Of a DNA stretch of 32,000 nt, positions 3,368 to 31,126 are shown piece after piece. The translations under genes and the position numbers were made by a program. Position 1 is the stretch's first letter; each line of letters starts with the position of its first letter. The stretch lies in contig NC_009664.2 of assembly GCF_000017305.1 (NCBI RefSeq), forward strand, positions 3,000,001-3,032,000, written 5' to 3'. The notes beneath the pieces are model-generated. The model was not told the origin of the DNA. It ran no database searches and saw only the letters and a list, made by a program, of their open reading frames with translations. The DNA is from Kineococcus radiotolerans SRS30216 = ATCC BAA-149. Its GTDB lineage: Bacteria; Actinomycetota; Actinomycetes; Actinomycetales; Kineococcaceae.

Positions 3368-3420
3368 CGATCCTCCAGGGACGGCGGTGTCTCGCGGGGG
3401 AGGGTAGCCCACCCGGGCAT

Positions 3421-4226: not shown

Positions 4227-4231
4227 CCCCG

Positions 4232-4254
4232 CCCCGGGGCGTGGCGCCCCGGGG
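4232..4254 (+). terminator. GC-rich hairpin after gntR (10-bp perfect stem, 3-nt loop)
   Basis: ccccggggcg-tgg-cgccccgggg sits 6 nt after the gntR stop. There is no U-tract, which is common for intrinsic terminators in high-GC actinobacteria. Confidence 0.4.
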
Positions 4255-4270
4255 GAGCGCCCGCACTGGG

Positions 4271-4276
4271 TAGGGT
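4271..4276 (+). promoter_or_regulatory. Candidate -10 hexamer TAGGGT for a leaderless glycan-operon transcript
   Basis: A TAnnnT hexamer lies 8 nt upstream of the GTG at 4285. No Shine-Dalgarno sequence lies between them, whereas most other genes here have GGAGG-like sites or coupled starts. Confidence 0.3.
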
Positions 4277-4284
4277 CGCGGACC

Positions 4285-5466
4285 GTGCCGCCCCTCGTCC
4301 GCATCGCGACGCGGACCTACCCCCCGGACGTGGGGGCCGCCCCCTTCCGCCTGCGCGCCCTGGCCCGCGCCCTCGTCGAGGCCGGCTGCGAGGTCGAGGT
4401 CGTCACCACGAGCGCCACCGCCCCCGAGACCGCCGACCCCGGTGTCGCGACCCGGCGCCGCCCCGTCCTGCGCGACGCCGACGGCGCCGTCCGCGGGTAC
4501 GTGCCCTACCTCTCCTTCGACGTCCCCCTCGCCGCGCGGCTGCTGACCGGCGCCCGCCCCGACGTCGTCGTCCACGAACCCCCGCCGACCACCGGGGTCG
4601 TCACCCGCGTCACCTCCGCGCTGCGCCGGGTCCCCTACGTCTCCTACCTGCCCGACGTCTGGTCGCAGGGCGCCGTCGCCGCCGGGGCGCCCGCCCCGGT
4701 GCTGCGGGCCGTCGCGCTGGCCGAGCAGGCCGCGCTGCGCGGGGCGGCCCGGGTCCTGGCCGTCACCGCGGGGATGGCCGAGGAGGTCGTGCGCGGGGGC
4801 GTGGACCCCGCCCGGGTCCGCGTCGTGGGCAACGGCGTGGACGTCGACGTCTTCCGGCCCGCCGCCGACCCCGCCGCCGACCCCGCCACCGCCGACCCGG
4901 GCCCGCCGGCCGGGGACCTGCGCGTCGTCTACAGCGGGACCATGTCGGAGTGGCAGGGGGCGGAGGTTCTCCTCCGCGGCTTCGCGCGGGTCCTGCGCGA
5001 GCGGCCCGGGGCCCGGCTCACCCTGGTCGGCGGCGGCGTCGACGTCCCCCGGCTGCGGGCGCTGGCCGCCGAGCTCGCCCCGCACGCCATCGACCTGCCC
5101 GGCACCGTCGCCCCCGAGCGGGCCGCGCGGCTGCTGGCCGGCGCCGACCTCGCGCTGGCCTCCCTCGTCCCCGGCACCGGCTACGACCTCATGTCGCCCA
5201 CGAAGATCTACGCGGCCACGGCCTGCGGCACCCCCGTCCTCTTCGCCGGGGTCGGCACCGGCGCTGCGGTCGTGCGCGAGCACGGGCTGGGGGTCGTCGT
5301 GGACCACGACCCCGACGCGGTGGCCGCGGCCCTGCGCGCGGCCACCACCCCGGACCCGGCCACCCGGGCCCGGCTGCGGGAGTGGGCGCTGGCGCACGGC
5401 TCCCTCGCCGCGGCGGCCCGCCGGGCCGCCGACGCGGTGCTCGAAGCGCTGCGGCCCCCGCGGTGA
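4285..5466 (+). CDS. GT4-family (GT-B fold) glycosyltransferase (393 aa)
   Basis: N-terminal Rossmann half (RIATRTYPPDVGAAPFRLRALARALVEAGCEVEVVT). C-terminal half with RVVYSGTMSEWQGAEVLL...LTLVGGG...PTKIYAATACGTPVLFAG, typical of WcaI/GT4 enzymes. GTG start at 4285. Confidence 0.85.
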   Translation: MPPLVRIATRTYPPDVGAAPFRLRALARALVEAGCEVEVVTTSATAPETADPGVATRRRPVLRDADGAVRGYVPYLSFDVPLAARLLTGARPDVVVHEPPPTTGVVTRVTSALRRVPYVSYLPDVWSQGAVAAGAPAPVLRAVALAEQAALRGAARVLAVTAGMAEEVVRGGVDPARVRVVGNGVDVDVFRPAADPAADPATADPGPPAGDLRVVYSGTMSEWQGAEVLLRGFARVLRERPGARLTLVGGGVDVPRLRALAAELAPHAIDLPGTVAPERAARLLAGADLALASLVPGTGYDLMSPTKIYAATACGTPVLFAGVGTGAAVVREHGLGVVVDHDPDAVAAALRAATTPDPATRARLREWALAHGSLAAAARRAADAVLEALRPPR

Positions 5467-7505
5467 TCCCGGCGACTCCCGCGATGGCCCCCGCGGTCCC
5501 CGGGTTCACCGTCGTCACCGGCGGGAGCCCCGCCTCCGACGCGCTCACCCTCGCCCTGGCCGCGGCCTGGGTCCTGCTGCCGGGGGCCCTCGTCCTCGCC
5601 GCCGCCGGGGTCCGCCGGGTCCCCGTGCTGCTCGGGGCCGCGCCGGCCACCTCGATCGGCGTCAGCACCGTCGTCGCGACCCTCACCGGGCTCAGCGGCA
5701 CCCGCTTCACGTGGTGGGGGGTCCTCGCCGCGACCGCCGTCCTCGCCCTGCTCGTCGCCGCGGTCCGCGGGCGGGGACGCGAACCGTTCGAGACCGGCCG
5801 GACCCCGCGCGGCCCGGCGATCGCCGCGGGGGTCCTGGTCCTCGCCGCGGGCGCCACGGCGTGCGAGCTGTTCCGGCGGGGGCTGGGCGCGCTCGCCACC
5901 CCGACGCAGGAGCACGACGCCCTCACCCACACCCTCGTCGCCGCCCGCGTCCTGCGCGCCGGGGACGCCGCGCCGTGGCGCGGCCAGGCCCTCGACGTCG
6001 TCACCGGCGTGCCCGCGCAGTACTACCCCAACGGGCTGCACCAGTGGGCGGCCCTCGTCGCCGGCACCGGCGACGTCAGCGTCGTCAGCGGCCTCAACGC
6101 CACGAGCGTCCTCGTCCTCGCCCTCGTCCAGCCGCTGGGCCTGCTCGCCCTGGCCGCGCGCACCCTGCCGCGGGCGTGGCTGCCCGCCGGCGGGGTCGCC
6201 GCCGTCGCCTCCGCGCTCGCCTACCAGCCGCTGCAGGCCATGCACCACGACTCCGGCGCCCTGCCGAACGCGGCCGCGATCGCCTTCGCCCCCGGCGTCG
6301 TCGCCCTGCTGCTGCCCCCGCCGAGCACCCCCGCCCGCGCCGTCGGGGGCCTCGTCCCCGCCCTGGCCCTGGCCTGCGCCGGAGCGGTCACCGTCCACCC
6401 CAGCGCCGCCCTCACCGTCGGCGGCGGGGTCCTCGGCTGGTTCGTCCTCGACGCCGTCGTCGGCCGGCGCAGCCCCTGGCGCGGGACGTGGTTCGCCGGC
6501 CTCGCCGGGGCCGGCGCGCTGGTCGCCGCCCTCGTGGGGACGGCGCTGGCCCGCGCCGCGGCCACCGGCGGGGGGTCCAGCTCCCGCTTCGTGCGCGACG
6601 TCGACCCGCAGTCCCTGCCCGACGCGCTGCACCGCGTCCTCACCCTGCCCCTGCAGGGCGGGATCGACCCCGCCGCGACCCGCGAGCAGTGGTGGCTGGC
6701 CGTCCCGGTGCTGCTGGGGGTGCTGCTGGCGGGACGCCGGGCCGGCGCGGCGGCGCTGACCTGGCTGGTGTGGACGGCGATCGCCGTGGCCTACCTCGTG
6801 GACCTGCGCGGCCCCGGCCTGGACCTGGTGTGGGACAGCGCCTGGAACTCCTACTACCGCGTCGTCGCCCACGGCAGCCCGTGGGCGTGGCTGCTCGCCG
6901 GGGTCGCGGTGGTCCGGCTCGCCGACCTGCTCACCGGCCCGCTCCCCGCGCGGGTCGCGCCCCGCGGCGCGCCCCTGCTGGCCGGGGCGCTGGGGCTCGC
7001 GCTCCTGGCCGGGGCCGGCTCCGACGTCCTGCCCACCGAGGTCCGCGCCCTGCGCGAGCGCTACGCCGACCCCGCCTACCAGCGCGTCGACGCCGACGAC
7101 GCGGCCGCCGCGCGCTTCCTCGCCGAGCACGTCCGCCCCGGCCAGCGCGTCCTGAACTCCGGCAACGACGGCTCCACCTACGCCTACGTCCTGGAGGGGG
7201 TGCCCGTCCTCGCCACCACCGCCGTCCCCACCGCCCCGCTGCCGGACCTGCGGACCCTGCTCAAGCGGTTCCGCGACCTGCCCACCGACCCCGAGGTCCA
7301 GGACCTCGTGCGCCGCCACGACGTCGCCTGGGTCGTCGTCGACGCCGACGCCCCCGGACTGCCCCTGCGCCCGGCCGACGCCGCGTTCTTCGGCGTCCCC
7401 GGCTACTCCGTGCCGCCGGGCCTGGTGGACCTCGACGCCGTCGCGGGCCTGCGCCGGGTCTTCACCAGCGGCACGGTGGGCGTGTGGCAGGTGACCGGGC
7501 CGTGA
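5463..7505 (+). CDS. Large polytopic membrane protein with a C-terminal extracytoplasmic domain, family not recognised (680 aa)
   Basis: GTG 5463 overlaps the GT4 stop (GTGA); ATG 5484 is an alternative start. About 430 aa of repeated hydrophobic helices are followed by a roughly 200-aa soluble region (RERYADPAYQRVDADDAAAARFLAEHVRPGQRVLNSGNDGSTYAYV...). It is embedded in the glycan operon. Confidence 0.7.
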   Translation: MIPATPAMAPAVPGFTVVTGGSPASDALTLALAAAWVLLPGALVLAAAGVRRVPVLLGAAPATSIGVSTVVATLTGLSGTRFTWWGVLAATAVLALLVAAVRGRGREPFETGRTPRGPAIAAGVLVLAAGATACELFRRGLGALATPTQEHDALTHTLVAARVLRAGDAAPWRGQALDVVTGVPAQYYPNGLHQWAALVAGTGDVSVVSGLNATSVLVLALVQPLGLLALAARTLPRAWLPAGGVAAVASALAYQPLQAMHHDSGALPNAAAIAFAPGVVALLLPPPSTPARAVGGLVPALALACAGAVTVHPSAALTVGGGVLGWFVLDAVVGRRSPWRGTWFAGLAGAGALVAALVGTALARAAATGGGSSSRFVRDVDPQSLPDALHRVLTLPLQGGIDPAATREQWWLAVPVLLGVLLAGRRAGAAALTWLVWTAIAVAYLVDLRGPGLDLVWDSAWNSYYRVVAHGSPWAWLLAGVAVVRLADLLTGPLPARVAPRGAPLLAGALGLALLAGAGSDVLPTEVRALRERYADPAYQRVDADDAAAARFLAEHVRPGQRVLNSGNDGSTYAYVLEGVPVLATTAVPTAPLPDLRTLLKRFRDLPTDPEVQDLVRRHDVAWVVVDADAPGLPLRPADAAFFGVPGYSVPPGLVDLDAVAGLRRVFTSGTVGVWQVTGP

Positions 7506-10587: not shown

Positions 10588-10662
10588 GCGCGGGGTGACG
10601 GGGCCGGGGCCGCGGGGCGGCTACGCTGACGCCACCATGCCCGAGCACAGTCACGCCCATGA

Positions 10663-13895
<3,233 letters not shown>

Positions 13896-13897
13896 CG

Positions 13898-14788
13898 GTG
13901 CCGGCGGCCACGACCGCCCCGGCACCGCTGCTCGCCCCGGGCCACGGCTCGGGGCTGCTGGACGTGGTCCGCTACCGCTACCTGCTGAAGCTGCTGGTCC
14001 GCAAGGAGATGCGGGTCCGCTACCGCGGGTCCGTCATGGGCCTGCTGTGGTCCTACGTGAAGCCGGGCGTGCAGTTCGCCGTCTTCTACTTCGCGATGGG
14101 GGAGTTCCTCAAGCTCAACGAGAGCGTCCCCAACTTCGCGGTGTACCTGTTCTCCGGCATCGTGGTCATCAACTTCTACACCGAGGCGTTCGGCAACGCG
14201 ACGCGCTCGGTGGTGGGCAACGCGCCGCTGATCAAGAAGATCTTCCTGCCCCGCGAGCTGTTCACGGTGTCCTCGGCGTGGGTGGCCTCGATCCACTTCC
14301 TGCCGCAGCTGGTGGTGCTGCTCGTGGCGTGCCTCGTCACCGGCTGGCGGCCGCTGCCGCAGCAGCTCGCCGGGGCGCTGCTCGGGTTCGCCATCGTCGC
14401 GGTCCTCGCCGTCGGGCTCGGGCTGCTCTTCGGCGCGATCAACGTGCTCTACCGCGACTTCGAGAACATCGTCGACCTGCTGCTGATGATCGTGACCTGG
14501 ACCTCGCCGGTCCTCTACGACTGGCGGAAGGTCGCCGACGCCGTCGGCGGCCCGGACTCCTGGTTCATGACCCTCTACCAGCTGAACCCGGTGACGGCCG
14601 CCGTCGAGCTGTTCCACTGGGCGTTCTGGTACCCCACCGGCGACGTCCGCACCGCCGAGGTCCCCGTCGTCCTGCCGCCGCACCTGCTGTGGTCGGGCCT
14701 GTGGGGCCTCCTCATCGCCCTCGTGCTCCTCGCGCTCGGACAGCTCGTGTTCCGCCGCATCGAGGGCCGTTTCGCGCAGGAGCTGTGA
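13898..14788 (+). CDS. wzm: ABC-2 type polysaccharide export permease (296 aa)
   Basis: RYLLKLLVRKEMRVRYRGSVMGLLWSYVKP...FSGIVVINFYTEAF...PLIKKIFLPRELF is the Wzm/RfbD ABC-2 signature. GTG lies 2 nt after the glfT2 stop. Confidence 0.9.
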   Translation: MPAATTAPAPLLAPGHGSGLLDVVRYRYLLKLLVRKEMRVRYRGSVMGLLWSYVKPGVQFAVFYFAMGEFLKLNESVPNFAVYLFSGIVVINFYTEAFGNATRSVVGNAPLIKKIFLPRELFTVSSAWVASIHFLPQLVVLLVACLVTGWRPLPQQLAGALLGFAIVAVLAVGLGLLFGAINVLYRDFENIVDLLLMIVTWTSPVLYDWRKVADAVGGPDSWFMTLYQLNPVTAAVELFHWAFWYPTGDVRTAEVPVVLPPHLLWSGLWGLLIALVLLALGQLVFRRIEGRFAQEL

Positions 14789-15582
14789 TGAGCGTGACGA
14801 GTTCCCCCGGCACCCCGGCCTCCGACACCCCCCGCCCGGGCACCCCCGCCGCCGGGGCGCCCACCGCGATCGAGGTCCACGGCCTGGTCAAGGACTTCAC
14901 CCTGCGCCACAACCGCTCCCTCAAGGAGCTGGTCATGGCGAAGATCCGCAAGAAGCCGATCTCGGACAGCTTCCGGGCCCTGCACGGGGTCGACCTGGAG
15001 GTCCGCCAGGGCGAGGCCCTCGCCCTGCTCGGCTTCAACGGCTCGGGCAAGTCGACGCTGCTGAAGCTGATCTCCGGGGTCATGCGCCCCGACGAGGGCA
15101 CGATCGGCGTCCGCGGCCGGATCGCCGGGCTCATCGAGGTCGGGGCCGGGTTCCACCCCGACCTGACCGGGCGCGAGAACGTCTACCTCAACGGCGCCAT
15201 CCTCGGGATGGACGAGGCGACGATCAACGCCCGCTTCGACGACATCGTCGCCTTCAGCGAGATCGAGCGCTTCATCGACACCGAGGTGAAGTTCTACTCC
15301 TCGGGGATGTTCCTGCGGCTGGCCTTCGCCGTCGCGGTGCACACCGACCCCGAGGTCTTCCTCATCGACGAGATCCTCTCCGTCGGCGACGAGCCGTTCC
15401 AGAAGAAGTGCCTGGCCCGCATCGAGGAGCTGCGCGCCGAGGGCCGCACGCTGGTCATCGTCAGCCACGACCTCGACATGGTCGCCGGCCTCTGCACCCG
15501 CGGGATCCTCCTGGAGCAGGGCCGCGTCGTCGCCGACGACACCGCCGAGCGGGTCGTGGCCCGGATGCGCGGTCAGGCGTGA
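14788..15582 (+). CDS. wzt: Polysaccharide ABC exporter ATP-binding protein, short form without a C-terminal carbohydrate-binding domain (264 aa)
   Basis: Walker A GFNGSGKSTLLK, GFHPDLTGRENVYLNG, signature YSSGMFLRLAFAVA, Walker B VFLIDEILSVGD and H-loop VSHD. The ATG shares one nt with the wzm stop (TGATG). Confidence 0.9.
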   Translation: MSVTSSPGTPASDTPRPGTPAAGAPTAIEVHGLVKDFTLRHNRSLKELVMAKIRKKPISDSFRALHGVDLEVRQGEALALLGFNGSGKSTLLKLISGVMRPDEGTIGVRGRIAGLIEVGAGFHPDLTGRENVYLNGAILGMDEATINARFDDIVAFSEIERFIDTEVKFYSSGMFLRLAFAVAVHTDPEVFLIDEILSVGDEPFQKKCLARIEELRAEGRTLVIVSHDLDMVAGLCTRGILLEQGRVVADDTAERVVARMRGQA

Positions 15583-17141
15583 CCGCCACGGCGTCGCGCA
15601 CCCGGCGCCCCCCGGCCCCCGGCCCGGCCGTCCCGCGCTCGCGGGCCCTGCTGCCCGCCCTGGGGGTGGGGGCCCTCGCCGCGGGGACCTTCGTCCTGGT
15701 GCACCGGGCGCTGGTCGACGACGCCTACATCACCCTCGCCTACGCGCGGAACCTCGCCCTGCACGGGACGTGGGGCCTGCTCTCCGACGTGGAGTCCAAC
15801 ACCGCCACCTCCCCGCTGTGGGTGCTGCTGCTGGCCGCCGTGACCGCGGTGGTGCGCCGGCCGGTGGTGGCGCTGGGGGTCCTGCACGTCCTCATGGCCG
15901 TCGGCCTCACCCTGTCGCTGACCTCCGCGGCCCGGCGCACCGGGCTGCCCGCGTGGGTGGGTCCCGCCGCGGCCGTGGCGGTGGGGGTCAACCCGCTGCT
16001 GCTGAGCTCCGTCGGCCTGGAGTCGGGCTTCCTCGTCCTGCTGCTGTCGCTGCTGCTGCTGGCCGCCGTCCGCGGCGCCGCGCTGCCGTACGGGCTGGCC
16101 GCGGGCGCGGTCGTGCTGACCCGGATGGACGCCGCCGTCGTCGTCGCCGTCCTCACCCTGCTCACCCCGGCCGTGCTGCGGCGGCTGCACGTGGCCGTCC
16201 CCGCCGCGCTGCTCGTCGTGGTGCCGTGGATGACCTGGAGCTGGTTCCACCTGGGCTCCGCCGTCCCCGACACCGTCGTCATCAAGACGCTGCAGGAGTC
16301 GTGGGAGCAGTACGACGTCCGCAACGGCATGCAGCTCTACGTCGAGGTCTACGGGCTGACCGCGGTCCTGGCGTTCCTGCCGGTGGTGCTCGGCGGGCTG
16401 GGGTGGTTCGTCCTCGCCGCCCTGGGCTGGACCTCGCGCCGCTCGGCCACCGCCCCGCCCAGCGGGCTGCGGGTGTGGCCGTGGCTGGCGGTGGGGGTCG
16501 CCGGCGTGGCGCACTACCTCGCGCTGAGCGTCCTCGGCGTCCCCCCGTACCACTGGTACTACGCCGTCCTCGTGGCGCTGTCGACGGTGGTGGGGGTCGC
16601 CGCCCTCGGCGCGCTCTTCCCCCGGGTCGAGCTGCGCCCCGTCGGCCTCGGGGCGTCGGCGGCCGCGGTCGTCCTCCTCGTGGCCAGCGCCGGGGTCGAC
16701 CTGCGCGCGGGGCTGCCCTGGTCGATCGCGCCCATCCAGACCAACTGGGCCCACCCCGCGCGCTACACCGAGATCGCCCGCGACGTGCAGGCCGTCCTGG
16801 AGCAGCGCGGCGGCCCCCAGCACGTCACCTCGCCCGGCGAGGTCGGCCACCTCGCCTACGTCTGCGACTGCGTCGTGGACTACTTCGCCGACCCGGCCCG
16901 CGTGCAGCCGATGATCGACCAGGTCGAGGCCGAGTCCTCGCCGCTGGGGCGGCGGCTGCTGGAGTGGAACTTCACCCACCGCGACGCGGACGCCGCGCCG
17001 GTCCCGGTGTCGGGGGAGCTCTTCCGCTACGACCGCGGCACCCAGCCGCCCGCGGCCCGGGGTCTGCCGACGTGGCCGATCACCACGACCTGGGACATGG
17101 TGCCCAGCGACATCGTCCTGCAACCGGTGGGTGGCGCGTGA
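15579..17141 (+). CDS. Polytopic membrane protein, candidate GT-C glycosyltransferase (520 aa)
   Basis: After the first TM helix there is a VDDAYITLAYARN motif, a DD-aromatic-I first-loop motif like those of GT-C/Emb-type enzymes. It is followed by about 11 hydrophobic segments and a C-terminal soluble region of roughly 110 aa. GTG 15579 overlaps the wzt stop. Confidence 0.65.
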   Translation: MTATASRTRRPPAPGPAVPRSRALLPALGVGALAAGTFVLVHRALVDDAYITLAYARNLALHGTWGLLSDVESNTATSPLWVLLLAAVTAVVRRPVVALGVLHVLMAVGLTLSLTSAARRTGLPAWVGPAAAVAVGVNPLLLSSVGLESGFLVLLLSLLLLAAVRGAALPYGLAAGAVVLTRMDAAVVVAVLTLLTPAVLRRLHVAVPAALLVVVPWMTWSWFHLGSAVPDTVVIKTLQESWEQYDVRNGMQLYVEVYGLTAVLAFLPVVLGGLGWFVLAALGWTSRRSATAPPSGLRVWPWLAVGVAGVAHYLALSVLGVPPYHWYYAVLVALSTVVGVAALGALFPRVELRPVGLGASAAAVVLLVASAGVDLRAGLPWSIAPIQTNWAHPARYTEIARDVQAVLEQRGGPQHVTSPGEVGHLAYVCDCVVDYFADPARVQPMIDQVEAESSPLGRRLLEWNFTHRDADAAPVPVSGELFRYDRGTQPPAARGLPTWPITTTWDMVPSDIVLQPVGGA

Positions 17142-17668
17142 GCCTGTTCGAGAAGATCGCCGCGGTGGACCTCCGGGTGCTGCGGGGGGTGCAGGGCGGG
17201 GTCCGGTTCCCCGGGGCGGTGCCCGTCGCGACGGGCCTCTCCCACGCCGGGGAGCACGCCGCGGCGTGGATCGGGACCGGGGTCGCGGGCTTCGTCCTGG
17301 ACCGCCGCCGCCGGCGGGAGTGGGCGGTCGCCACGGGCGCCGTCGTCGCCGCGCACGGCGCCTCCGTCGTCCTCAAGCGCGTCGCGCGCCGGCACCGCCC
17401 GCTGGACCACCACGTGCAGGTGCGGGTGGGCACCCCCAGCCGATGGAGCATGCCCAGCTCGCACGCCACGTCGACGACGGCCGCCGCGATCGCCTTCGCG
17501 CCGCTGCTGCCCGCCCCCGCCCGGCCGCTGGTCGTCGCGCTGCCGGGGGCCATGGCGCTGTCCCGGCTCGTGCTGGGCGTCCACTACCCGACCGACGTCA
17601 CCGCGGGCGCGCTGCTCGGCGCGGCGACGGCCGTCGCGGCGCGCCGCGTCGCGGGGAGGACCTCGTGA
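17138..17668 (+). CDS. PAP2-family phosphatase, Rv3807c-like decaprenylphosphoryl-5-phosphoribose phosphatase (176 aa)
   Basis: The three PAP2 motifs are present: KRVARRHRP, PSSHA and SRLVLGVHYPTDV. Its position immediately upstream of the UbiA-type gene matches M. tuberculosis Rv3807c-Rv3806c. Confidence 0.8.
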   Translation: MSLFEKIAAVDLRVLRGVQGGVRFPGAVPVATGLSHAGEHAAAWIGTGVAGFVLDRRRRREWAVATGAVVAAHGASVVLKRVARRHRPLDHHVQVRVGTPSRWSMPSSHATSTTAAAIAFAPLLPAPARPLVVALPGAMALSRLVLGVHYPTDVTAGALLGAATAVAARRVAGRTS

Positions 17669-18567
17669 GCACCCGGGAGCAGACGGTGTCGACCCCCTCC
17701 ACCCGGTCGCCCGCCTGGCTGCGCGCCATGCGCCCGCGGCAGTGGGTGAAGAACGTCCTCGTCCTCGCGCCGGTGTTCCCCGCCGGCCAGCAGGTGGGCC
17801 TCGACACCCTCACCGGGGTCGGGGTCGCCTTCGTGCTGTTCTGCGTGCTGTCGAGCTCGATCTACCTGATCAACGACGCCAAGGACGTCGAGGCCGACCG
17901 CGCGCACCCGCGCAAGCGGTTCCGGCCCATCGCGGCGGGGGAGCTGCCGGTCCGCACCGCCGTCGTCCTCGCCGTGGTCCTGGCCGCGGTCGCGCTGGGC
18001 GCGGGCACGCTCTGGCAGCCGATGCTGGGGGTGGTGCTCGGGGTCTACTTCGTCATCCAGCTCGCCTACTGCTTCGGCCTCAAGCACGAACCCGTCCTCG
18101 AGCTGGCCTGCGTCGCCTCCGGGTTCCTGCTGCGCATGCTCGCCGGCGGCACCGCCGGCGACATCCCCCTCTCGGGCTGGTTCCTGCTGACCACGGCGTT
18201 CGGCTCGCTGTTCATGGCCGCCGGCAAGCGCTACGGGGAGGCCCGCCGCGGGGAGCTCACCGGGGAGCCCGTGCGCCGGGTGGTGCAGCGGTACACCCCG
18301 ACCTACCTGCGCTTCGTGTGGACCCTCGCCGCGACGGTCGTCGTCACCACGTACGCGTTGTGGGCGATCGAGGTCCTCGTCGCCCAGACCGGCACGAGCC
18401 TGGCGACCCTGACCATCGTCCCCTTCGTCCTCGCCGTGCTGCGCTACGCGGTGGACGTGGACAGCGGGAACGCCGAGGAGCCCGAGGAGATTGCCCTGCA
18501 CGACCGGGTGCTGCTCGGCCTGGCGGGCCTGTGGTGCGCCTCCCTGCTGCTGGCGGTGTGGCTGTGA
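17665..18567 (+). CDS. ubiA: UbiA-family decaprenyl-phosphate 5-phosphoribosyltransferase (DPPR synthase), Rv3806c-like (300 aa)
   Basis: LRAMRPRQWVKNVLVLA, YLINDAKDVEADRAHPRKRFRPIAAG, LAYCFGLKHEPVLE, FGSLFMAAGKRYGE, YLRFVWTL and LRYAVDVDSGNAEEPEEIALHDRVL closely parallel Rv3806c. Confidence 0.88.
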   Translation: MSTREQTVSTPSTRSPAWLRAMRPRQWVKNVLVLAPVFPAGQQVGLDTLTGVGVAFVLFCVLSSSIYLINDAKDVEADRAHPRKRFRPIAAGELPVRTAVVLAVVLAAVALGAGTLWQPMLGVVLGVYFVIQLAYCFGLKHEPVLELACVASGFLLRMLAGGTAGDIPLSGWFLLTTAFGSLFMAAGKRYGEARRGELTGEPVRRVVQRYTPTYLRFVWTLAATVVVTTYALWAIEVLVAQTGTSLATLTIVPFVLAVLRYAVDVDSGNAEEPEEIALHDRVLLGLAGLWCASLLLAVWL

Positions 18568-19007
18568 GCGCCCCGGTGCGGACCCTGCTGGCCTCCGAGC
18601 GCGCGGGGGAGGTCGTGCGGTTCCTCGTCTCCGGCGGGATCGCCTACCTCGCCGACCTGGTGGTCTTCAACGTCCTGCTCCTCGCCGGGGTCGGCTCGGT
18701 CTGGTCCAAGGTCGTCTCCAGCGTCATCGCGATCTTCATCGCGTTCCTGGGCAGCCGGTACTACACCTGGCGCGACCGCCGCAGCGAGCACCCGGGCCGC
18801 GAGTACGCCATGTTCTTCCTGTTCTCCGCGATCGCCGCCGGGCTGCAGCTGCTGTGCCTGGCGATCACGCACTACGGGTTCGGCTGGACCTCGGCCCTGG
18901 CCGACAACCTCTCCGGCAACGTCGTCGGGATGGCCATCGCCATGGTGTTCCGCTTCCTGACCTTCCGGACGTTCGTCTTCCCGGACCGCTCCGCGACCAG
19001 TGCGTGA
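18564..19007 (+). CDS. gtrA: GtrA-family small membrane protein, Rv3789-like (147 aa)
   Basis: VVRFLVSGGIAYLADLVVFNVL...FLGSRYYTWRD...VFRFLTFRTFVF has four TM segments and the typical GtrA pattern. GTG overlaps the ubiA stop. Confidence 0.85.
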   Translation: MSAPVRTLLASERAGEVVRFLVSGGIAYLADLVVFNVLLLAGVGSVWSKVVSSVIAIFIAFLGSRYYTWRDRRSEHPGREYAMFFLFSAIAAGLQLLCLAITHYGFGWTSALADNLSGNVVGMAIAMVFRFLTFRTFVFPDRSATSA

Positions 19008-20127
19008 CCCCAGGACCCTGATCCCCGTCCTGCTGGGGATCGTGCTCGCGGTCGTCGTCGTCCGCAGCGGTGTCGGGCAGGCGTCCTGGGAGGTCGGGTA
19101 CGACCTCTCCGTCTACCGCGACGGCGCCCGGGACCTGCTGGCCGGCCGTGACCTCTACGGGCGCGAGACCTACCGCGGGCACTGGTTCGTGTACCCGCCG
19201 TTCGCGGCGATCCTCTTCGTGCCCCTGCTCCTGCTGCCCGCGGCGGTGGACCTCGTCCTGTGGGACGCGGTGCTGGTCGCGGTGGCGACGTGGGGGTGCT
19301 GGCGGGTCCTGCGCTCCGTCGCCGGCCCCGGGTGGTGGCTGGGGACGGGGATCGCGTTCGTCCTGCTCAGCGACCCGTTCCGCGAGGCGCTGGTGCTGGG
19401 GCAGATCAGCCCCCTCGTCGTGCTGGGGCTCGTGCTCGGCTGCCTCTACGGCGGGCGCGGGGGGGCCCTGCTCGCCGCGCTGTCGGGGGCGGTGAAGGTG
19501 ACCCCGGCCCTGGTGATCGCCTCGCTGCTGAACCGGCGGGCCCGGGGGTGGTTCGCGCTGCCCGTGGTCGTCGTGGGGGCGGTGGTGACGCTGCTCGGGG
19601 CCCTGGTGGCCCCGCGCTCGGCGGTGTCCTACTTCGGGGGCCTGCTCTGGGACCCCGACCGCGTCGCGGAGCCGCGGACGACGACGAACAACTCGCTGGC
19701 GGGGGCGTTCGCGCACGCGGGGACGTCGTCCTCGCTGGCCTCGGCGCTGGGGGTGGTGTGCGCGGTCCCGCTGCTGGTCCTCGTCGTCGTCGTCGCCCGG
19801 CGCTGCGACTGGCTGGACCGCTCCGCGCGGCTGCGCTTCGGGCTGCTCGTCTCCGTCGTGACCTGCCTGGTGTCGCCGGTGACGTGGTCGCACCACGCGC
19901 TGGCCGCCCCGATCGCGGTGGTGGTGCTGCTGGCCGGGCGGCGCCACGGCCCCCTGCTGGTGCTGGCGGGTCTCCCGTGGCTGCTGCCGGTGCTGCACTG
20001 GGGGCCGGTGCTCGCCCAGACCCGGCCGCTGTCGCTGCTGGTGCTCGTCGTCCTGCTCAGCGCGCGCCCGTCGCGCACCGCGCGGGCGCCGCGCTCCGAG
20101 CTGGACGGGGCCGCCCGGGAGGTCTGA
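19000..20127 (+). CDS. DUF2029 / GT87-type polyprenyl-phosphate-sugar dependent membrane glycosyltransferase (375 aa)
   Basis: DLSVYRDGARDLLAGRDLYGRE...WFVYPPFAAILFVPL and KVTPALV are characteristic of the GT87 family (PimE/AftC/Mpt-like). GTG 19000 overlaps the gtrA end by 8 nt. Confidence 0.8.
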   Translation: MRDPRTLIPVLLGIVLAVVVVRSGVGQASWEVGYDLSVYRDGARDLLAGRDLYGRETYRGHWFVYPPFAAILFVPLLLLPAAVDLVLWDAVLVAVATWGCWRVLRSVAGPGWWLGTGIAFVLLSDPFREALVLGQISPLVVLGLVLGCLYGGRGGALLAALSGAVKVTPALVIASLLNRRARGWFALPVVVVGAVVTLLGALVAPRSAVSYFGGLLWDPDRVAEPRTTTNNSLAGAFAHAGTSSSLASALGVVCAVPLLVLVVVVARRCDWLDRSARLRFGLLVSVVTCLVSPVTWSHHALAAPIAVVVLLAGRRHGPLLVLAGLPWLLPVLHWGPVLAQTRPLSLLVLVVLLSARPSRTARAPRSELDGAAREV

Positions 20128-20140
20128 GCCGCGGGCGGCC

Positions 20141-20177
20141 GGCGGCACCGGGCGGGGTCACCCGCGCCGGTGCCGCC
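20141..20177. terminator. Bidirectional GC hairpin between convergent operons
   Basis: ggcggcaccgggcggg-gtca-cccgcgccggtgccgcc forms a roughly 16-bp stem with one bulge and a 4-nt loop. It sits in the 61-bp gap between the stops at 20127 (+) and 20189 (-). Confidence 0.5.
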
Positions 20178-20188
20178 GCGCCACCGGC

Positions 20189-22183: not shown

Positions 22184-22208
22184 GTCGTCCTCCGGGTGCT
22201 TCCGCGGA

Positions 22209-23432
22209 TCAGTGGTTCAGCGAGATCGAGGTCGTGCGGCGGGTCGCGTCCCAGGTCAGCGAACCGCCCTGGAAGTCCAGGCGCAAGCCCCCCGGGACGG
22301 GGCGCTCGTCGGCGACGGGGAAGCCCAGCGGGCCGTTCTCCCAGCCGGTCGCGGCCCACGTCTCGCGCAGCGCGCCGCGGACGGCGTGCGCGCCGGTCGC
22401 GGGGGACCAGTAGACCGACCCGCCCTCGAAGTGGGTGTAGGCGCCGGGCTTGCTGGGGGTCCGGCGGTCGCCGGTGGTGGGGAACCCCAGGCCGTTCTCC
22501 CAGCCGAGGGCGGCCCACCGGTCGCGGATCGCCCCGCGCAGCTCGTGGGCCCCCGTCGCGGGGGACCAGTAGACCGAGCCGCCCTGGAAGTGGTTGTAGG
22601 CCCCCGCCCGCCGCGGGGTGCGCAGTTCGTCGGTCAGGGGGACCCCGAGGGCGGCGGGGCCGCCGAGTTCGCCGTAGCGGCCGGCGATGGCGCCGTGCAC
22701 CTCGCGCACCGGGGTCGTGGGGGAGGCGTAGACGCTGCCGTGGCGGTAGTCGCGCCGGGAGACCCCCGCCGAGGACGTGGTGCGCCGGGCGCCCACGTCG
22801 CCGCCGAGGACGGAGCGTTCCCCGCCGAGGGCGATCCAGTGCCCGGTGAGGGGGTCGGCCGTCCCGGTCCACCACGACGTCTCGCGGGCGGCGCCGGAGA
22901 AGGTGAGCGACAGGTGGACGTGGTCGGTGTGCGGGTCGGGACCGGTGTAGGGCTGCCACCCGGCGGCGGGGTCGTAGGCCTTCCACACCGCGCGGTCCCA
23001 GATGACGTACATGACCCCGAGGCGGCGGGCGTTCGCGGCGGCGTTGCCGTTCGCGTCGGGGGCGAGCAGCCAGGTGGTGAACTCCCGGGCGAGGGCGGCC
23101 TCCGCGGGCACGGCGGCGTCGAGCATCCAGTCCAGCGCGCGGCCGTCGTGGTGCTCGGAGGTGGGGGGGCCGCCGACGGGGCAGGCGCGGGCGGTCCCCA
23201 CGTCCTGCGGGCCGTAGGCGTCGCGGATCAGCCGGGCGACGGCGAGGGTCCCCGGTTGCGGTGCGGCGCAGGAGATCGGCGCCTGGTACCGGGGGGCGAG
23301 GGCGTCGACCTCGGCGGGCAGCCCGCCCGGGGCGCGGGGGGCGGCCGAGGCGGCGGGCCCGACCAGGCCGGCCAGCGCCGCGACGAGCAGGCCCGCCACC
23401 ACCGGCGCCGCGCCGGGACCCCGCCGCCTCAC
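22209..23432 (-). CDS. Secreted LAS/M15-like zinc peptidase (VanY-type motif) with 4 C-terminal LGFP repeats (407 aa)
   Basis: Signal peptide MRRRGPGAAPVVAGLLVAALAGLVGPAASAA. SEHHDGRALD fits the SxHxxGxAxD metal-binding motif of D-Ala-D-Ala carboxypeptidase-like LAS enzymes, and HTDHVHLS supplies an HxH. LGFP repeats follow. GAGGAAG lies before the GTG at 23432. Confidence 0.75.
   Translation of the reverse strand: MRRRGPGAAPVVAGLLVAALAGLVGPAASAAPRAPGGLPAEVDALAPRYQAPISCAAPQPGTLAVARLIRDAYGPQDVGTARACPVGGPPTSEHHDGRALDWMLDAAVPAEAALAREFTTWLLAPDANGNAAANARRLGVMYVIWDRAVWKAYDPAAGWQPYTGPDPHTDHVHLSLTFSGAARETSWWTGTADPLTGHWIALGGERSVLGGDVGARRTTSSAGVSRRDYRHGSVYASPTTPVREVHGAIAGRYGELGGPAALGVPLTDELRTPRRAGAYNHFQGGSVYWSPATGAHELRGAIRDRWAALGWENGLGFPTTGDRRTPSKPGAYTHFEGGSVYWSPATGAHAVRGALRETWAATGWENGPLGFPVADERPVPGGLRLDFQGGSLTWDATRRTTSISLNH
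22212..22826 (-). repeat. In-frame tandem array encoding 4 LGFP repeats
   Basis: Repeats such as GWENGLGFPTTGDRRTPSKPGAYTHFEGGSVYWSPATGAHAVRGALRETWAAT. The DNA is visibly related to the arrays at 20192-20944 and 23437-24195. Confidence 0.8.
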
Positions 23433-23433
23433 G

Positions 23434-28630: not shown

Positions 28631-30202
28631 TCAGCCGGCGGCCGGCTCCGTCCGGACGTAGAGCCGCACGCTGAACGCCCGCTTCTCCTCCGTGGACACC
28701 AGCCGGTACCCCTCGGACAGCAGCCGGACGGCCTCGCGGTCCTCGGGGGTCCTCACCACGACCGGGCCGACCCCGCCGATCACCCAGATCCGCTGCACCC
28801 CGGCCAGCGCGGCCCCCAGGTCCCGGGCCGGCACGGTGGTGCCCACCAGCGTCGCCGAGGGGGCGGCGGGCTCGGCCAGCGCGAGGTCGTCCAGCCCGGC
28901 GAAGGCCTCCGGGTACACCTGGGTGAGGACCCGGTAGCGGTACTCCCCGTCGGGGACGAAGAGGAGCCCGTCCCCGGGCCGGGCGTGGGCCGCGACGTGC
29001 TCCGCGGTGCCCCGCAGGTCCTCGCCGTGCCCGATCGAGGGGGAGCGGAAGACGAGCTGCAGGTGCAGCCCCGCCAGCGCCACCGCCAGCACCAGCCCCG
29101 CGCCGAGGACGCCCGCCCGGCGCGCCCGCACCGCCACCGTCACCGCGGCGGCCAGCAGCAGGCACGTCCCCGGCGCGACGAAGACCAGGTAGCGCGTCGT
29201 CCACAGCGGGTGGACCTGCGAGAGGCCCCACAGCAGCGGCCACGGCAGCACCCCCCACAGGACGCCCAGCAGGACCAGCCGGCGCGCCCGCGCCGCCACC
29301 AGCGCCACCAGCGCCGCGAGGCCCGCCACCGCGAGCGCGGCGGGGGAGGACCCCAGCGCGAAGTCCACGTGCGCGAGGAGCTCACCCGGCGCGGGCCGCT
29401 GCAGGAAGGCGACCTGCCCGCTCTGCCGGCCCTGGGCCACGACCAGCGGCAGGGCCAGCACGACCCCCGTCCCCGCCGCGAGCGCGGCCCGCCACCGCAC
29501 CCGCGGCCCGGCCGCCAGGGCCCACCCGGCGTGCGCCAGCAGCACCAGCGCCGCGACGGTGTTCAGCGACACCAGCACCGGCAGGCTCAGCGCGTAGCCC
29601 ACCCACCAGCCCGCCCGGCGCCCGGAACCCGCCCGCAGCAGCAGGTAGGTGCTCAGGGTCGCCACGAGGGTCACCAGGGCGTAGGGCCTGGCCTCCTGCG
29701 CGTAGCGGCTGACGAAGGGCGTGGCGACGAACAGGGCCGCCGCGGTCGCCCCGGTGAGCCGGGACACCGCCGGCCCCACCGCGACCGCCGCCGCGCGCCG
29801 CCCCACGCCGTGCAGCGCCGCGGCCGTCAGCGCCGCCGCGACCACCGAGATCCAGCGCACCTGCACCACGTCGACGGAGGGGCCGAACAGCGCGTGGGCG
29901 AGGAAGTAGAACGGCGCGTGCACGAGGTCGACGTGCTGGACGAGCGCCCGGATCTGCTCGGGGGTGCGGGCGGCGACGGCGACCGAGACGGCCTCGTCGC
30001 GCCACGGGCTCGGCGTCCCGACCCGCCAGGAGAACACGAGCCCGCCCAGGAGCGTGGCGACCAGCCCGATGACGACGTCGGCGCGGGTCCCCGCCCCGGA
30101 CCGCAGCAGCGTCGGCGCGGGAGCGGCGCCGCGCGCGGCGGGGACCGCGCCGGCGGGGGGCCCGGGGTCCGCGCGGGTGCTCGACAGGTCGACCTCGCTC
30201 AA
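28631..30202 (-). CDS. PMT_2/ArnT-like GT-C membrane glycosyltransferase with a C-terminal soluble domain (523 aa)
   Basis: The first loop reads SPWRDEAVSVAVAAR, a DE motif of GT39/GT83-like enzymes. About 10 TM segments are followed by a roughly 150-aa soluble tail (GEDLRGTAEHVAAHARPGDGLLFVP...RIWVIGG). The TTG start at 30202 lies 8 nt after the dprE2 stop and is uncertain. Confidence 0.72.
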   Translation of the reverse strand: MSEVDLSSTRADPGPPAGAVPAARGAAPAPTLLRSGAGTRADVVIGLVATLLGGLVFSWRVGTPSPWRDEAVSVAVAARTPEQIRALVQHVDLVHAPFYFLAHALFGPSVDVVQVRWISVVAAALTAAALHGVGRRAAAVAVGPAVSRLTGATAAALFVATPFVSRYAQEARPYALVTLVATLSTYLLLRAGSGRRAGWWVGYALSLPVLVSLNTVAALVLLAHAGWALAAGPRVRWRAALAAGTGVVLALPLVVAQGRQSGQVAFLQRPAPGELLAHVDFALGSSPAALAVAGLAALVALVAARARRLVLLGVLWGVLPWPLLWGLSQVHPLWTTRYLVFVAPGTCLLLAAAVTVAVRARRAGVLGAGLVLAVALAGLHLQLVFRSPSIGHGEDLRGTAEHVAAHARPGDGLLFVPDGEYRYRVLTQVYPEAFAGLDDLALAEPAAPSATLVGTTVPARDLGAALAGVQRIWVIGGVGPVVVRTPEDREAVRLLSEGYRLVSTEEKRAFSVRLYVRTEPAAG

Positions 30203-30209
30203 GGGTCCG

Positions 30210-30971
30210 TCAGAGGGGGAGCTTGCGGAACACGGGCGCGGGCACGTGGCGCAGCGCCGACATGACCCAGCGCATCGGCTCGGGCGCCCAGACGGTCTCC
30301 TTGCCGCTGCGCACCGCGTCCACGGCCACCTCCGCCACCTGCTCCGCCGACACCGACAGGGGGGCCGCCTTGAGCCCCTCGGTCATCTTGGTGGTGACGA
30401 AGCCGGGACGCACGACGACCACGCGCACCCCGCCCGGGCGCAGGGCCTCGCGCAGGCCGGTGAAGAAGGCGTCGAAGCCGGCCTTGGAGGAGCCGTAGAC
30501 GAAGTTGGAGCGCCGGGCCCGCTCGCCGGCGACGCTGGACAGCGCCACCAGGACCCCGTGGCCCTGCTGCTGCAGCCGCGCGGCCAGGTGCACCCCGAGG
30601 TTCACCGGGGCGGTGTAGTTGACCGTCGCGACCCGCACGGCCTCGGAGGCGTCCTGCCAGGACACCTCGTTGTCCCCGAGGACGCCGAAGGCCAGCACCG
30701 TGACGTCCACGTCGCCGAAGGGCCCCTCGAAGCACTCCTGCACGACGCGGGCGTGCCCCTCGAGGTCGGTGGCCTCGAAGTCCACCGCGCGCACCTCGTG
30801 CCCGCGCCGGTGCAGCCGGTCCACCGCGGCCTCCCGGCGCGCGCCGGGGCGGGCCGCCAGGGTCACCCGCAGCGGGCGCTCGGGGCTGAGGCGCTCGACG
30901 ATGGCGAGGCCGATGTCGGAGGTGCCCCCGAGGAGGAGGACGGAGCGCGGGTTCCCGAGGGCGTCGATCAC
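30210..30971 (-). CDS. dprE2: Decaprenylphosphoryl-2-keto-beta-D-erythro-pentose reductase (SDR), DprE2/Rv3791-like (253 aa)
   Basis: VIDALGNPRSVLLLGGTSDIGLAI, VDVTVLAFGVLGD, NYTAPV, SSVAGERARRSNFVYGSSKAG, VRVVVVRPGFV and VWAPEPMRWVMSALRHVPAPVFRKLPL are collinear with M. tuberculosis DprE2 (254 aa). The GTG at 30971 was chosen on that alignment. The ORF-track start at 30989 (TTG) adds 6 aa. Confidence 0.9.
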   Translation of the reverse strand: MIDALGNPRSVLLLGGTSDIGLAIVERLSPERPLRVTLAARPGARREAAVDRLHRRGHEVRAVDFEATDLEGHARVVQECFEGPFGDVDVTVLAFGVLGDNEVSWQDASEAVRVATVNYTAPVNLGVHLAARLQQQGHGVLVALSSVAGERARRSNFVYGSSKAGFDAFFTGLREALRPGGVRVVVVRPGFVTTKMTEGLKAAPLSVSAEQVAEVAVDAVRSGKETVWAPEPMRWVMSALRHVPAPVFRKLPL

Positions 30972-31126
30972 AGGGCTCGACACTAGCAACGGCGGCCGCG
31001 GGCCCCGGACGCGACGACGCGCGCCCCGGGATCGTCACCCGACGGTGACCTGGTCCGCGGGGGACCCCCGCGCCCGTCGTAGCCTCCGGGGGTGATCCCC
31101 CCGCGCCGGCCCCCGCACCGCGCCCG

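Follow-up and report, generated by a model that had tools for sequence, protein, structure and literature searches.

Our data make it probable that the window, the whole 32-kb stretch of DNA analyzed here, is an arabinogalactan cluster from a Kineococcus-type actinobacterium in which a 520-aa GT-C_A protein uses decaprenyl-phospho-arabinose (DPA) in the manner of AftB, a 375-aa GT87 protein may be AftC-like, and both operate alongside AftA and Emb. From sequence comparison and synteny, the 520-aa protein is most likely a DPA-dependent arabinofuranosyltransferase of an unnamed AftB-like family. For each of the three proteins queried, the closest homologues came from Kineococcus, and the genus description (Yokota 1993, as cited in PMC7601052) gives arabinogalactan as part of the Kineococcus wall. 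The features concerned are as follows:

5463..7505, + strand: DUF6541 polytopic protein, AftA-related (PF20176, 374 bits)
10702..11889, + strand: Glf, UDP-galactopyranose mutase (PF03275, 270.8 bits); stop overlaps the glfT2 start
11886..13895, + strand: GlfT2-type galactofuranosyltransferase (PF19320, 172.7 bits; PF17994, 100 bits; GT2 domain)
13898..14788, + strand: ABC-2 permease, Wzm-type polysaccharide exporter (PF01061, 57.7 bits)
14785..15582, + strand: ABC ATPase, Wzt-type (PF00005, 74.7 bits); stop overlaps the next start (GTGA)
15579..17141, + strand: 520-aa predicted GT-C_A enzyme, putatively of an unnamed AftB-like family (AF2 model, Foldseek, family profile, DPA-gene synteny)
17138..17668, + strand: PAP2 phosphatase, Rv3807c-type partner of DPPR synthase (PF01569, 59.3 bits; all three PAP2 motifs)
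17665..18567, + strand: UbiA-type decaprenyl-phosphate phosphoribosyltransferase, DPPR synthase (NF008978, 444 bits; cut-off 207)
18564..19007, + strand: GtrA-family small membrane protein, Rv3789-like (PF04138, 84.5 bits)
19000..20127, + strand: 375-aa GT87 GT-C enzyme (PF09594, 131.8 bits)
28631..30193, − strand: PMT_2-like GT-C enzyme, encoded by the next gene downstream of dprE2 (PF13231, E = 7e-4)
30210..31022, − strand: DprE2, second enzyme of DPR-to-DPA epimerisation (NF053786, 371 bits; cut-off 250)

We observed that nine genes, glf–glfT2–wzm–wzt–[520 aa]–PAP2–ubiA–gtrA–[GT87], form one tightly coupled run on the + strand, in which neighbours always overlap at start and stop by 4-8 nt or lie 2 nt apart. 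The run starts at glf (10702), upstream of the five genes (520-aa, PAP2, UbiA, GtrA and GT87) that the first-pass annotation had described as contiguous and coupled. The junctions confirmed that description, the five genes lay at the coordinates given for them, and the codon-position GC of the five genes was typical of real genes (GC3 0.95-0.99). All motifs quoted for them were found in the translations: VDDAYITLAYARN; KRVARRHRP, PSSHA and SRLVLGVHYPTDV (PAP2); NDAKDVEADRAHPRKRFRPIAAG; and WFVYPPFAAILFVPL. Galactan-export genes adjoin the 520-aa gene on one side and DPA genes on the other. The DPA-donor module proposed earlier is present as far as PAP2, UbiA and GtrA are concerned but is not complete in the window: DprE2 is encoded 10 kb away, and no DprE1 was found in the 32 kb. 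Both DPPR synthase and DprE2 exceeded their curated cut-offs.

As a single query, the 520-aa protein gave no Pfam (Arabinose_trans and AftA included), NCBIfam or PDB sequence match. Its AF2 model (pLDDT 93.5) has ~10-11 TM segments and a C-terminal extracytoplasmic domain of ~145 aa. Foldseek analysis of this model showed a GT-C_A fold, with matches to ArnT, AftB, PglB, ALG9/12 and Emb; by fold, ArnT (E = 4e-7) was slightly ahead of AftB (E = 1e-5, 19-20% identity). A DD motif that is near-invariant across the family (D47-D48) marks the tip of the first juxtamembrane helix, where helix 47-62 begins. Because it follows TM1 directly in the model, it is predicted to fall in the first extracytoplasmic segment, where it had been placed before. 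The modeled fold and this motif put the 520-aa protein in GT-C, also in agreement with the earlier assignment.

A family profile (100 sequences) matched AftB alone among 177,635 PDB sequences (E = 4.9e-5, AftB 35-321), a weak match that was unseen with the single sequence and with a narrower profile, was confined to the N-terminal ~55% of its length, and carried a large HMMER compositional-bias correction. The hhalign probability was 90.9% for AftB, 15% for GT87 and 0.4% for Emb, and the real AftB fragment scored 27.8 bits, whereas 2000 local shuffles of it reached 3.1 at most. AftB D61/D62, T91, E172, R221, T274 and K278 aligned with D47/D48, T77, E148, R182, T232 and K236 of the 520-aa family, all at least 90% conserved. 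These AftB residues (e.g. D62, T91, E172, R221, T274) comprise the catalytic nucleophile and donor-analogue contacts (PMC12041299). The AftB phosphate ligand R372 fell outside the aligned region, and its equivalent was not identified. Together with the shared gene position, these data do not support the earlier view of the 520-aa protein as a novelty outside the Aft enzymes: by profile it is distantly homologous to AftB, and by gene order it is the positional counterpart.

The assignment of the 375-aa protein to GT87 held up, as it passed the Pfam threshold for PF09594 and gave a PimE-like model (pLDDT 93.1; best structural match PimE, TM 0.73, 25% identity). The protein is all-membrane, without a C-terminal domain. 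Orthologues at ≥48% identity occurred only in Kineococcus, with a sharp fall to ≤38% outside the genus. By these comparisons it is an ordinary GT87 member of a Kineococcus-specific subfamily. We excluded it as a PimE orthologue (88 bits against the PimE equivalog model, cut-off 413). GT87 also includes the DPA-dependent AftC. M. tuberculosis AftC has 433 aa and likewise no C-terminal domain (PMC2610374), so the earlier statement that the flanking proteins are neither Emb- nor Aft-sized does not hold for the GT87 protein. The 520-aa protein has half the length of Emb.

The GT87 gene is translationally coupled to gtrA and ubiA, which points to AftC-like DPA use by its product, with a mannosyl donor nearly as likely. 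The gene overlaps gtrA by 8 nt within the DPA operon, an arrangement kept in every Kineococcus cluster examined. This, the AftC precedent and the distance from the PimE equivalog cut-off argue against a polyprenyl-phospho-mannose-dependent mannosyltransferase (PimE/Rv2181-like) that adds mannose to lipoglycan or arabinan. We nevertheless give that alternative somewhat less than an even chance, with several observations on its side. PimE (9dm5) was both the closest solved structure and the only PDB sequence match (phmmer E = 1.5e-7), and the sole NCBIfam match was a mannosyltransferase model. The PimE catalytic and phosphate-binding residues were all kept (D35, Y39, Y65, Q135, K166, W296, H298, H299), although the conserved residues bind phosphate and do not specify the sugar. 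The gtrA-GT87 pairing was confined to Kineococcus, and no GT87 gene was found in the DPA clusters examined outside the genus.

We next considered the donor of the 520-aa protein in light of synteny. DPA genes lay within 10 kb in 43 of 80 species loci of its family; no sugar genes were nearby in 32 of the 80, two of which were short contig fragments. Homologues adjoined ubiA, PAP2, dprE1/E2 or Emb genes in Kineococcus, Amycolatopsis, Saccharomonospora, Saccharopolyspora and Geodermatophilus, and at several of these loci they took the mycobacterial aftB position. In a MAG (L035) and in Amycolatopsis the gene order was glf-glfT2-PAP2-ubiA-[520-aa family], the counterpart of the M. tuberculosis order, in which aftB comes last. 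DPA-linked members were distributed over the whole family tree. This linkage spans at least three actinobacterial orders, and DPA use by the 520-aa protein is therefore likely. The earlier claim that both flanking proteins consume DPA is thus upheld as likely for the 520-aa protein, while for the GT87 protein it is split between arabinose and mannose.

It is unlikely that the 520-aa protein is instead a GT-C enzyme with another lipid donor (polyprenyl-phospho-mannose, -ribose or other) or a decorator of exported galactan, next to DPA genes only through a shared wall-polysaccharide operon. Its location at the galactan-export/DPA boundary, the lack of DprE1 in the window and the best fold match to ArnT, which handles a different sugar, are consistent with such a role. 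So are paralogues that adjoin GlfT2-like genes and ABC transporters and lack DPA genes within 10 kb (Amycolatopsis L002/L003, Mycolicibacterium stellerae L053). Against it, AftB, which is DPA-dependent, is the one solved structure related to the protein at sequence level, with conserved arabinose-phosphate contacts, and no synthase for any other polyprenyl-phospho-sugar was found next to the loci examined. In Geodermatophilus, moreover, no transferase other than the family member accompanies PAP2-ubiA-gtrA and dprE2-dprE1, and galactan genes are absent from the vicinity.

The 32-kb window contained no Emb, AftA or AftD homologue, and in the nine closest Kineococcus genomes none was found up to 10 kb from the cluster. 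The first-pass annotation had inferred, from the window only, that Emb-type enzymes play no part in making the arabinan here. This was not borne out. K. gypseus encodes AftA (AftA_N 307 bits, AftA_C 155 bits) and Emb (PF04602 234 bits; EmbB 7bvf_B, E = 2.5e-54) 2-7 kb downstream of its ubiA-gtrA-GT87 genes; its 520-aa family gene is unlinked from that cluster. In the Pseudonocardiales Saccharopolyspora and Saccharomonospora, the 520-aa family is back-to-back with Emb. The 520-aa and GT87 enzymes probably act alongside classical AftA and Emb, not in their place. An organism without Emb/Aft-type enzymes, whose arabinan comes entirely from the two flanking uncharacterized transferases, would fit the negative searches but is very improbable given K. 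gypseus, the coexistence with Emb, the 32 kb of genome examined and two more GT-C candidates in the window.

Those two candidates are the DUF6541 and PMT_2-like proteins. The DUF6541 protein is an additional candidate membrane transferase of the same gene run; the true AftA of K. gypseus also matches DUF6541 (30.4 bits), and a DUF6541 gene adjoins glf in Amycolatopsis (L042). The PMT_2-like protein has an RDE motif after TM1 and scored 94.6 bits against NF052499 (Rv1635c-type mannosyltransferase; cut-off 900).

In the pathway that we infer, Glf and GlfT2 would synthesize galactan in the cytoplasm for export via Wzm/Wzt. UbiA and PAP2 would supply decaprenyl-phospho-ribose, which DprE1 (encoded elsewhere) and DprE2 would convert to DPA. 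The 520-aa protein would draw DPA out of the membrane and bind it so that T77, E148, R182 and T232 surround the sugar-phosphate, and its D47-D48 pair would transfer arabinofuranose onto the exported glycan at the outer face of the membrane. The GT87 protein, with its full PimE-type catalytic set, could use DPA in an AftC-like way.

EmbA/B/C (GT53) and AftA (GT85) are DPA-dependent GT-C enzymes of the arabinan pathway. They show weak fold similarity to the 520-aa protein, and differ in size (Emb) and as separate genes in K. gypseus. ArnT (undecaprenyl-phospho-L-Ara4N transferase, PDB 5f15; TM 0.51) resembles it in size and overall architecture, and some database records of family members carry an ArnT-type name. 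However, single-sequence and profile searches of the PDB found no sequence-level similarity to ArnT, no Ara4N pathway genes lie near the 520-aa gene, and the host is Gram-positive, without lipid A. The GT87 protein shares its all-membrane form of about 400 aa with AftC (Rv2673), and its superposition, catalytic Asp and phosphate-binding Lys/Trp/His with PimE; its gtrA-ubiA operon context differs from those of mycobacterial aftC and pimE.

Termini made by AftB have a role in mycolate attachment. Unlike AftB, the 520-aa family extends to non-mycolate actinomycetes, where that role does not apply, and in M. stellerae both are present, as distinct families. Identity to AftB is ~19-20% only, detectable only by the broad profile, and the protein is shorter (520 aa; the AftB chains deposited for M. 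chubuense have 617-669 aa), its C-terminal domain being far smaller than the AftB cap domain. Nonetheless, it shares with AftB (Rv3805c; terminal beta-1,2-arabinofuranosyltransferase; PDB 9dlf/9dlh) the GT-C_A fold, the DD at the tip of the first juxtamembrane helix, the aligned donor-contact equivalents, an architecture in which an extracytoplasmic C-terminal domain follows a polytopic N-terminal module and, in Amycolatopsis and several MAGs, the gene position directly after PAP2-ubiA.

The window has a G+C content of 69-81%, and codon-position GC gave an unambiguous gene set. Nine consecutive + strand genes (10702-20127) encode glf, glfT2, an ABC-2 permease, an ABC ATPase, an unnamed 520-aa polytopic protein, PAP2, UbiA, GtrA and a 375-aa GT87 protein. 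Model searches with Pfam and NCBIfam gave clear assignments for glf and glfT2. Each pair of neighbours in this run either overlaps by 4-8 nt at stop and start or is separated by 2 nt, which bears out the description of the flanked genes in the first-pass annotation as contiguous and coupled. All motifs quoted there were found in the translated ORFs. Upstream of the run, in the same orientation, lie genes for a GT4, a DUF6541 protein, a double GT2 protein and an acyltransferase. Downstream, on the opposite strand, are three LGFP-repeat wall hydrolases, DUF1501/DUF1800, a PMT_2-like GT-C protein and DprE2. The features used below are as follows.

5463-7505, + strand: DUF6541 protein (374 bits)
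7451-10587, + strand: double GT2 protein and Acyl_transf_3 membrane acyltransferase, preceding glf
15579-17141, + strand: unnamed 520-aa ORF, predicted GT-C_A fold (model)
17138-17668, + strand: PAP2, above the Pfam threshold
17665-18567, + strand: UbiA-type decaprenyl-phosphate phosphoribosyltransferase (NF008978, 444 bits vs cut-off 207)
18564-19007, + strand: GtrA, above the Pfam threshold
19000-20127, + strand: GT87 protein (PF09594, 131.8 bits)
20189-25326, - strand: three LGFP-repeat wall proteins in succession (SpoIID+LGFP, LGFP only, Amidase_2+LGFP)
28631-30193, - strand: PMT_2-like GT-C protein with an RDE motif after TM1, immediately downstream of dprE2
30210-31022, - strand: DprE2 (NF053786, 371 bits vs cut-off 250)

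The decaprenyl-phospho-arabinose (DPA) donor module reported between the two transferases was confirmed, with a correction. UbiA and PAP2 are present; the module is incomplete in the window, with DprE2 10 kb away on the - strand and no DprE1 found in the 32 kb, a result that refers to the window rather than the whole genome. The occurrence of dprE2 (30210-31022, -) without an adjacent dprE1 is unusual. The first half of the double GT2 protein is weakly GlfT1-like (82.9 bits vs cut-off 330) and is encoded with the acyltransferase before glf, an arrangement pointing to genes for galactan priming and for O-acylation within this run. A promoter and terminator scan across 3300-20400 gave nothing informative. 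In a close relative, the amidase of the LGFP set additionally bears an Rv3811_N domain, echoing M. tuberculosis, where the Rv3811 gene is situated near glf.

We searched the 520-aa protein as a single sequence against Pfam, NCBIfam and PDB and obtained no match; a narrow 63-sequence profile (A1) also had no match in PDB. When the 63 family members were scanned one by one against Pfam, four gave weak GT87 matches (best E 4e-4) and none matched PMT_2. The database names "ArnT-like" and "RgtA/B/C/D-like" carried by some members therefore lack Pfam backing.

The N-terminus of the protein is Arg-rich. An AlphaFold model built from 63 homologues (pLDDT 93.5, pTM 0.92) placed TM1 at residues 20-44 and a juxtamembrane helix after it (residues 47-62), with about 10-11 hydrophobic or membrane segments in all, followed by an alpha/beta C-terminal domain of ~145 aa (residues 376-520). 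Foldseek of this model against PDB gave 20 matches at E<=1e-3, all of them GT-C enzymes. These included ArnT (E 4e-7, TM 0.51), AglB, PglB and ALG9/12 (E 4e-6 to 1e-4) and AftB (E 1e-5, 19-20% identity, a low rmsd of 6.8–7.1 Å in a 476-column alignment). EmbC (E 9.5e-4), AftD (E 1.8e-3) and AftA (E 4.8e-3) were weaker. The model thus supports the earlier assignment of the protein to GT-C, with a predicted GT-C_A fold. It likewise places the DD motif in the first extracytoplasmic segment, with D47-D48 at the tip of juxtamembrane helix 1, after TM1; across the family, conservation of both residues is complete or at least 90%. In the C-terminal extracytoplasmic domain, the cysteine pair C429-x-C431 (window 16863-16871) is invariant in the close family, and E421 is invariant even across the broad family. 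This site is possibly a disulphide or metal site.

We observed a relation to AftB at the profile level. AftB (GT89) is a retaining enzyme that makes terminal beta-1,2 linkages with Araf taken from DPA. A broad profile (A2) of 100 representatives drawn from homologue-search clusters was run against 177,635 PDB sequences. It matched AftB of M. chubuense (9dlf, E 4.9e-5, AftB residues 35-321), and the sole other match was a designed peptide, attributable to chance. In a shuffle control, 2000 locally shuffled AftB sequences peaked at 3.1 bits compared to 27.8 bits for real AftB. By hhalign, the family matched the AftB segment with 90.9% probability, the GT87 alignment with 15% and a genuine Saccharopolyspora Emb with 0.4%.

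Within AftB residues 35-321 as aligned by HMMER, to which the comparison is confined, AftB D61-D62, T91, E172, R221, T274 and K278 pair with D47-D48, T77, E148, R182, T232 and K236 of the 520-aa protein, each at least 90% conserved in the family. Cryo-EM of AftB identified D62 as the catalytic nucleophile and T91, E172, R221, T274 and R372 as contacts of the donor analogue 2F-FPA (PMC12041299). Five of these six residues have aligned conserved counterparts (D48, T77, E148, R182, T232), and R372 falls outside the alignment. These sequence comparisons suggest that the 520-aa protein is a member of an unnamed AftB-like GT-C family. It probably works like an Aft-type arabinofuranosyltransferase, with AftB as its nearest relative and a fit to that group that is not clean. 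Pfam searches found neither the Emb (GT53) domains Arabinose_trans, Arabino_trans_N and Arabino_trans_C in the 520-aa protein nor the AftA (GT85) domains AftA_N and AftA_C in the 520-aa or the 375-aa protein.

The family is large. In a profile search of 1.84 billion representative proteins, the threshold E<=1e-30 was passed by 424 clusters (50% identity), a lower bound for the family, and E<=1e-10 by 2925. Neither Pfam nor NCBIfam has a model for it, and we found no characterised member. We surveyed 10-kb flanks in 80 species-representative genomes carrying a homologue. DPA genes (ubiA, dprE1 or dprE2) lay within 10 kb in 43 of them, and DPA, Emb or galactan genes were near the homologue in 48 of the 80. 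The gene order in Kineococcus is wzt-[family]-PAP2-ubiA-gtrA-GT87. Amycolatopsis, Saccharomonospora and several MAGs have glf-(glfT2)-PAP2-ubiA-[family], with dprE2-dprE1 and glfT2 close by. One MAG locus (L035) equals, gene for gene, the M. tuberculosis order glf-glfT2-PAP2-ubiA-aftB, with a family member in the place of aftB. The family gene of Saccharopolyspora is divergent from two Emb genes, with two dprE1, dprE2 and gtrA close; in Geodermatophilus africanus, a 38%-identical homologue is the sole transferase beside PAP2-ubiA-gtrA and dprE2-dprE1.

DPA-linked members occurred in almost all major branches of a neighbour-joining tree. Unlinked members were mostly Amycolatopsis paralogue expansions, some as three tandem copies, and some paralogues adjoin GlfT2-like genes and ABC transporters. 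Tandem arrays of two or three paralogues were seen at the Amycolatopsis loci L031, L034, L045 and L082 (about 8470-13000), at L014:10001-13050 and at L005. No sugar-pathway genes lay within 10 kb of the Amycolatopsis triple arrays; the surroundings of these arrays encode, among others, an MFS transporter and a protein with a LigD primase-polymerase domain. We rejected the idea that paralogue arrays carry their own donor genes, as none were found around L045 or the Kineococcus gypseus locus L021.

The second flanking transferase, the 375-aa protein, is a further member of the known GT87 family, as had been proposed: PF09594 scored 131.8 bits vs a gathering cut-off of 25 with the full model (1-237) covered, and its structural model (pLDDT 93.1) superposed on PimE with TM 0.73 and 25% identity, other families being far behind. 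PimE residues D58, Y62, Y92, Q163, K195, W319, H321 and H322 have catalytic and phosphate-binding roles (PMC12041525). Six residues of the 375-aa protein align directly (Y65, Q135, K166, W296, H298 and H299 to Y92, Q163, K195, W319, H321 and H322), and D35 and Y39 correspond by position to D58 and Y62, in front of the alignment; all eight are invariant or nearly so. Such residues serve phosphate binding and acceptor activation and so say nothing about which sugar is transferred. The protein is not a PimE orthologue (NF009915, 88.1 bits vs equivalog cut-off 413), and sorting it between AftC and PimE through a Rhodococcus GT87 match (P0208, the single Corynebacteriales match looked at) failed, as the neighbourhood of P0208 is not an aftC locus. 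AftC (Rv2673 / NCgl1822) is a GT87 enzyme that transfers Araf from DPA in alpha-1,3 linkage. The claim that it is not Aft-sized was wrong, since M. tuberculosis AftC has 433 aa and likewise lacks a C-terminal domain (PMC2610374). Orthologues with at least 48% identity were found in Kineococcus only; beyond the genus, identity was at most 38%. A GT87 gene follows gtrA in all Kineococcus clusters seen, and none was found in the DPA clusters of other orders among the surveyed loci.

Searches of the window, and of 10 kb around the cluster in the nine Kineococcus genomes closest to it, found no Emb, AftA or AftD. In Kineococcus gypseus, AftA and Emb are encoded at L086:14430-19686, 2-7 kb downstream of ubiA-gtrA-GT87 and after an LGFP gene. 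Both are genuine (AftA_N 307 bits, AftA_C 155 bits; PF04602 234 bits, M. tuberculosis EmbB E 2.5e-54), so the genus has the classical enzymes. The homologue of the 520-aa protein in this species lies elsewhere (L021:9896-11398) in an unrelated neighbourhood. The first-pass view that arabinan here is made solely by uncharacterised enzymes is therefore not supported: K. gypseus has AftA and Emb, and 32 kb cannot carry such a claim.

The window holds two further GT-C candidates that the first reading had passed over, the DUF6541 and PMT_2-like proteins. The DUF6541 model is matched by the genuine K. gypseus AftA (30.4 bits) and a DUF6541 gene adjoins glf in Amycolatopsis, so this looks like an uncharacterised AftA-related membrane transferase family. 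The PMT_2-like protein has a weak relation to the Rv1635c-type mannosyltransferase (94.6 bits vs cut-off 900); its gene lies downstream of dprE2, the position held by aftA in M. tuberculosis. Both proteins gave only chance matches against PDB sequences (E ≥ 0.88).

For the 520-aa protein, the GT87 protein and UbiA alike, the closest homologues belong to Kineococcus (65-94% identity), and no Corynebacteriales were among the best 120 matches of UbiA. The Kineococcus wall is described as containing meso-diaminopimelate and arabinogalactan (Yokota et al. 1993, as cited in PMC7601052). In a review on how the envelope evolved, the only groups listed with arabinogalactan are Corynebacteriales, Pseudonocardiales and Actinopolysporales (PMC6194230). 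The window is thus an arabinogalactan cluster of a lineage largely ignored by the biosynthetic literature. No publication on Kineococcus arabinan enzymes or Pseudonocardiales AftB-like proteins came up in our literature search, nor any description of the 520-aa or 375-aa protein. Arabinogalactan genes of the Kineococcus or Amycolatopsis type also occur in public records (L013, L043; P0138, P0413) whose titles read "Janthinobacterium lividum" MAG, "Candidatus Melainabacteria" MAG and "Paenibacillus sp. TRM 82003"; these assemblies are probably mis-binned or mislabelled.

In the mechanism we propose, GlfT2-type enzymes would build galactan on a lipid carrier, Wzm/Wzt would export it, and UbiA, PAP2, DprE1 and DprE2 would produce DPA. 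The 520-aa enzyme, acting on the outer face, would take DPA laterally from the membrane, with R182, T77, E148 and T232 surrounding arabinose-phosphate. D48 (or D47) would then act as nucleophile, as proposed for retaining AftB, or as base. The GT87 enzyme would act likewise through D35 and K166/H299, on DPA or polyprenyl-phospho-mannose. The 520-aa gene often lies beside both galactan and DPA genes, which would fit a priming role as well as a capping role.

We tentatively suggest, with somewhat more doubt than belief, that the family is a widespread group of glycosyltransferases and the compact, ancestral partner of the actinobacterial DPA pathway, with mycobacterial AftB as its sister lineage. 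It might catalyse an arabinosylation whose acceptor or linkage is particular to it, in the non-mycolate arabinogalactan walls of Kineosporiales, Pseudonocardiales and Geodermatophilales, with the Amycolatopsis paralogue expansions diversifying the arabinan.

Arabinan synthesis is a validated tuberculosis drug target, and what is known about it comes almost entirely from mycobacteria and corynebacteria. A highly conserved, compact enzyme of AftB-like type accompanying DPA genes in non-mycolate actinomycetes could be a simpler model of how GT-C enzymes recognise DPA. The family could also offer a view of how arabinogalactan machinery evolved prior to mycolic acids and a genome marker to predict arabinan-containing walls. 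It is sizeable and occurs in well-sequenced antibiotic producers (Amycolatopsis, Saccharopolyspora), still without a Pfam or NCBIfam model. Overall, the outcome, which would be no surprise for cell-wall specialists, is a sizeable uncharacterised family with a clear, testable predicted function and a correction of the Emb-free arabinan idea.

Compared to known systems, the 520-aa protein does not fit Emb, which has about 1050-1100 aa. AftB has eleven TM helices and a large periplasmic cap domain (PMC12041299). The 520-aa protein differs from AftB in being shorter, with a much smaller C-terminal domain (~145 aa), and in having no assigned counterpart of one donor ligand (R372); moreover, in a Mycolicibacterium genome the 520-aa family exists alongside as a separate family. 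Its homology to AftB shows only at the profile level, another point on which its fit to that group is not clean.
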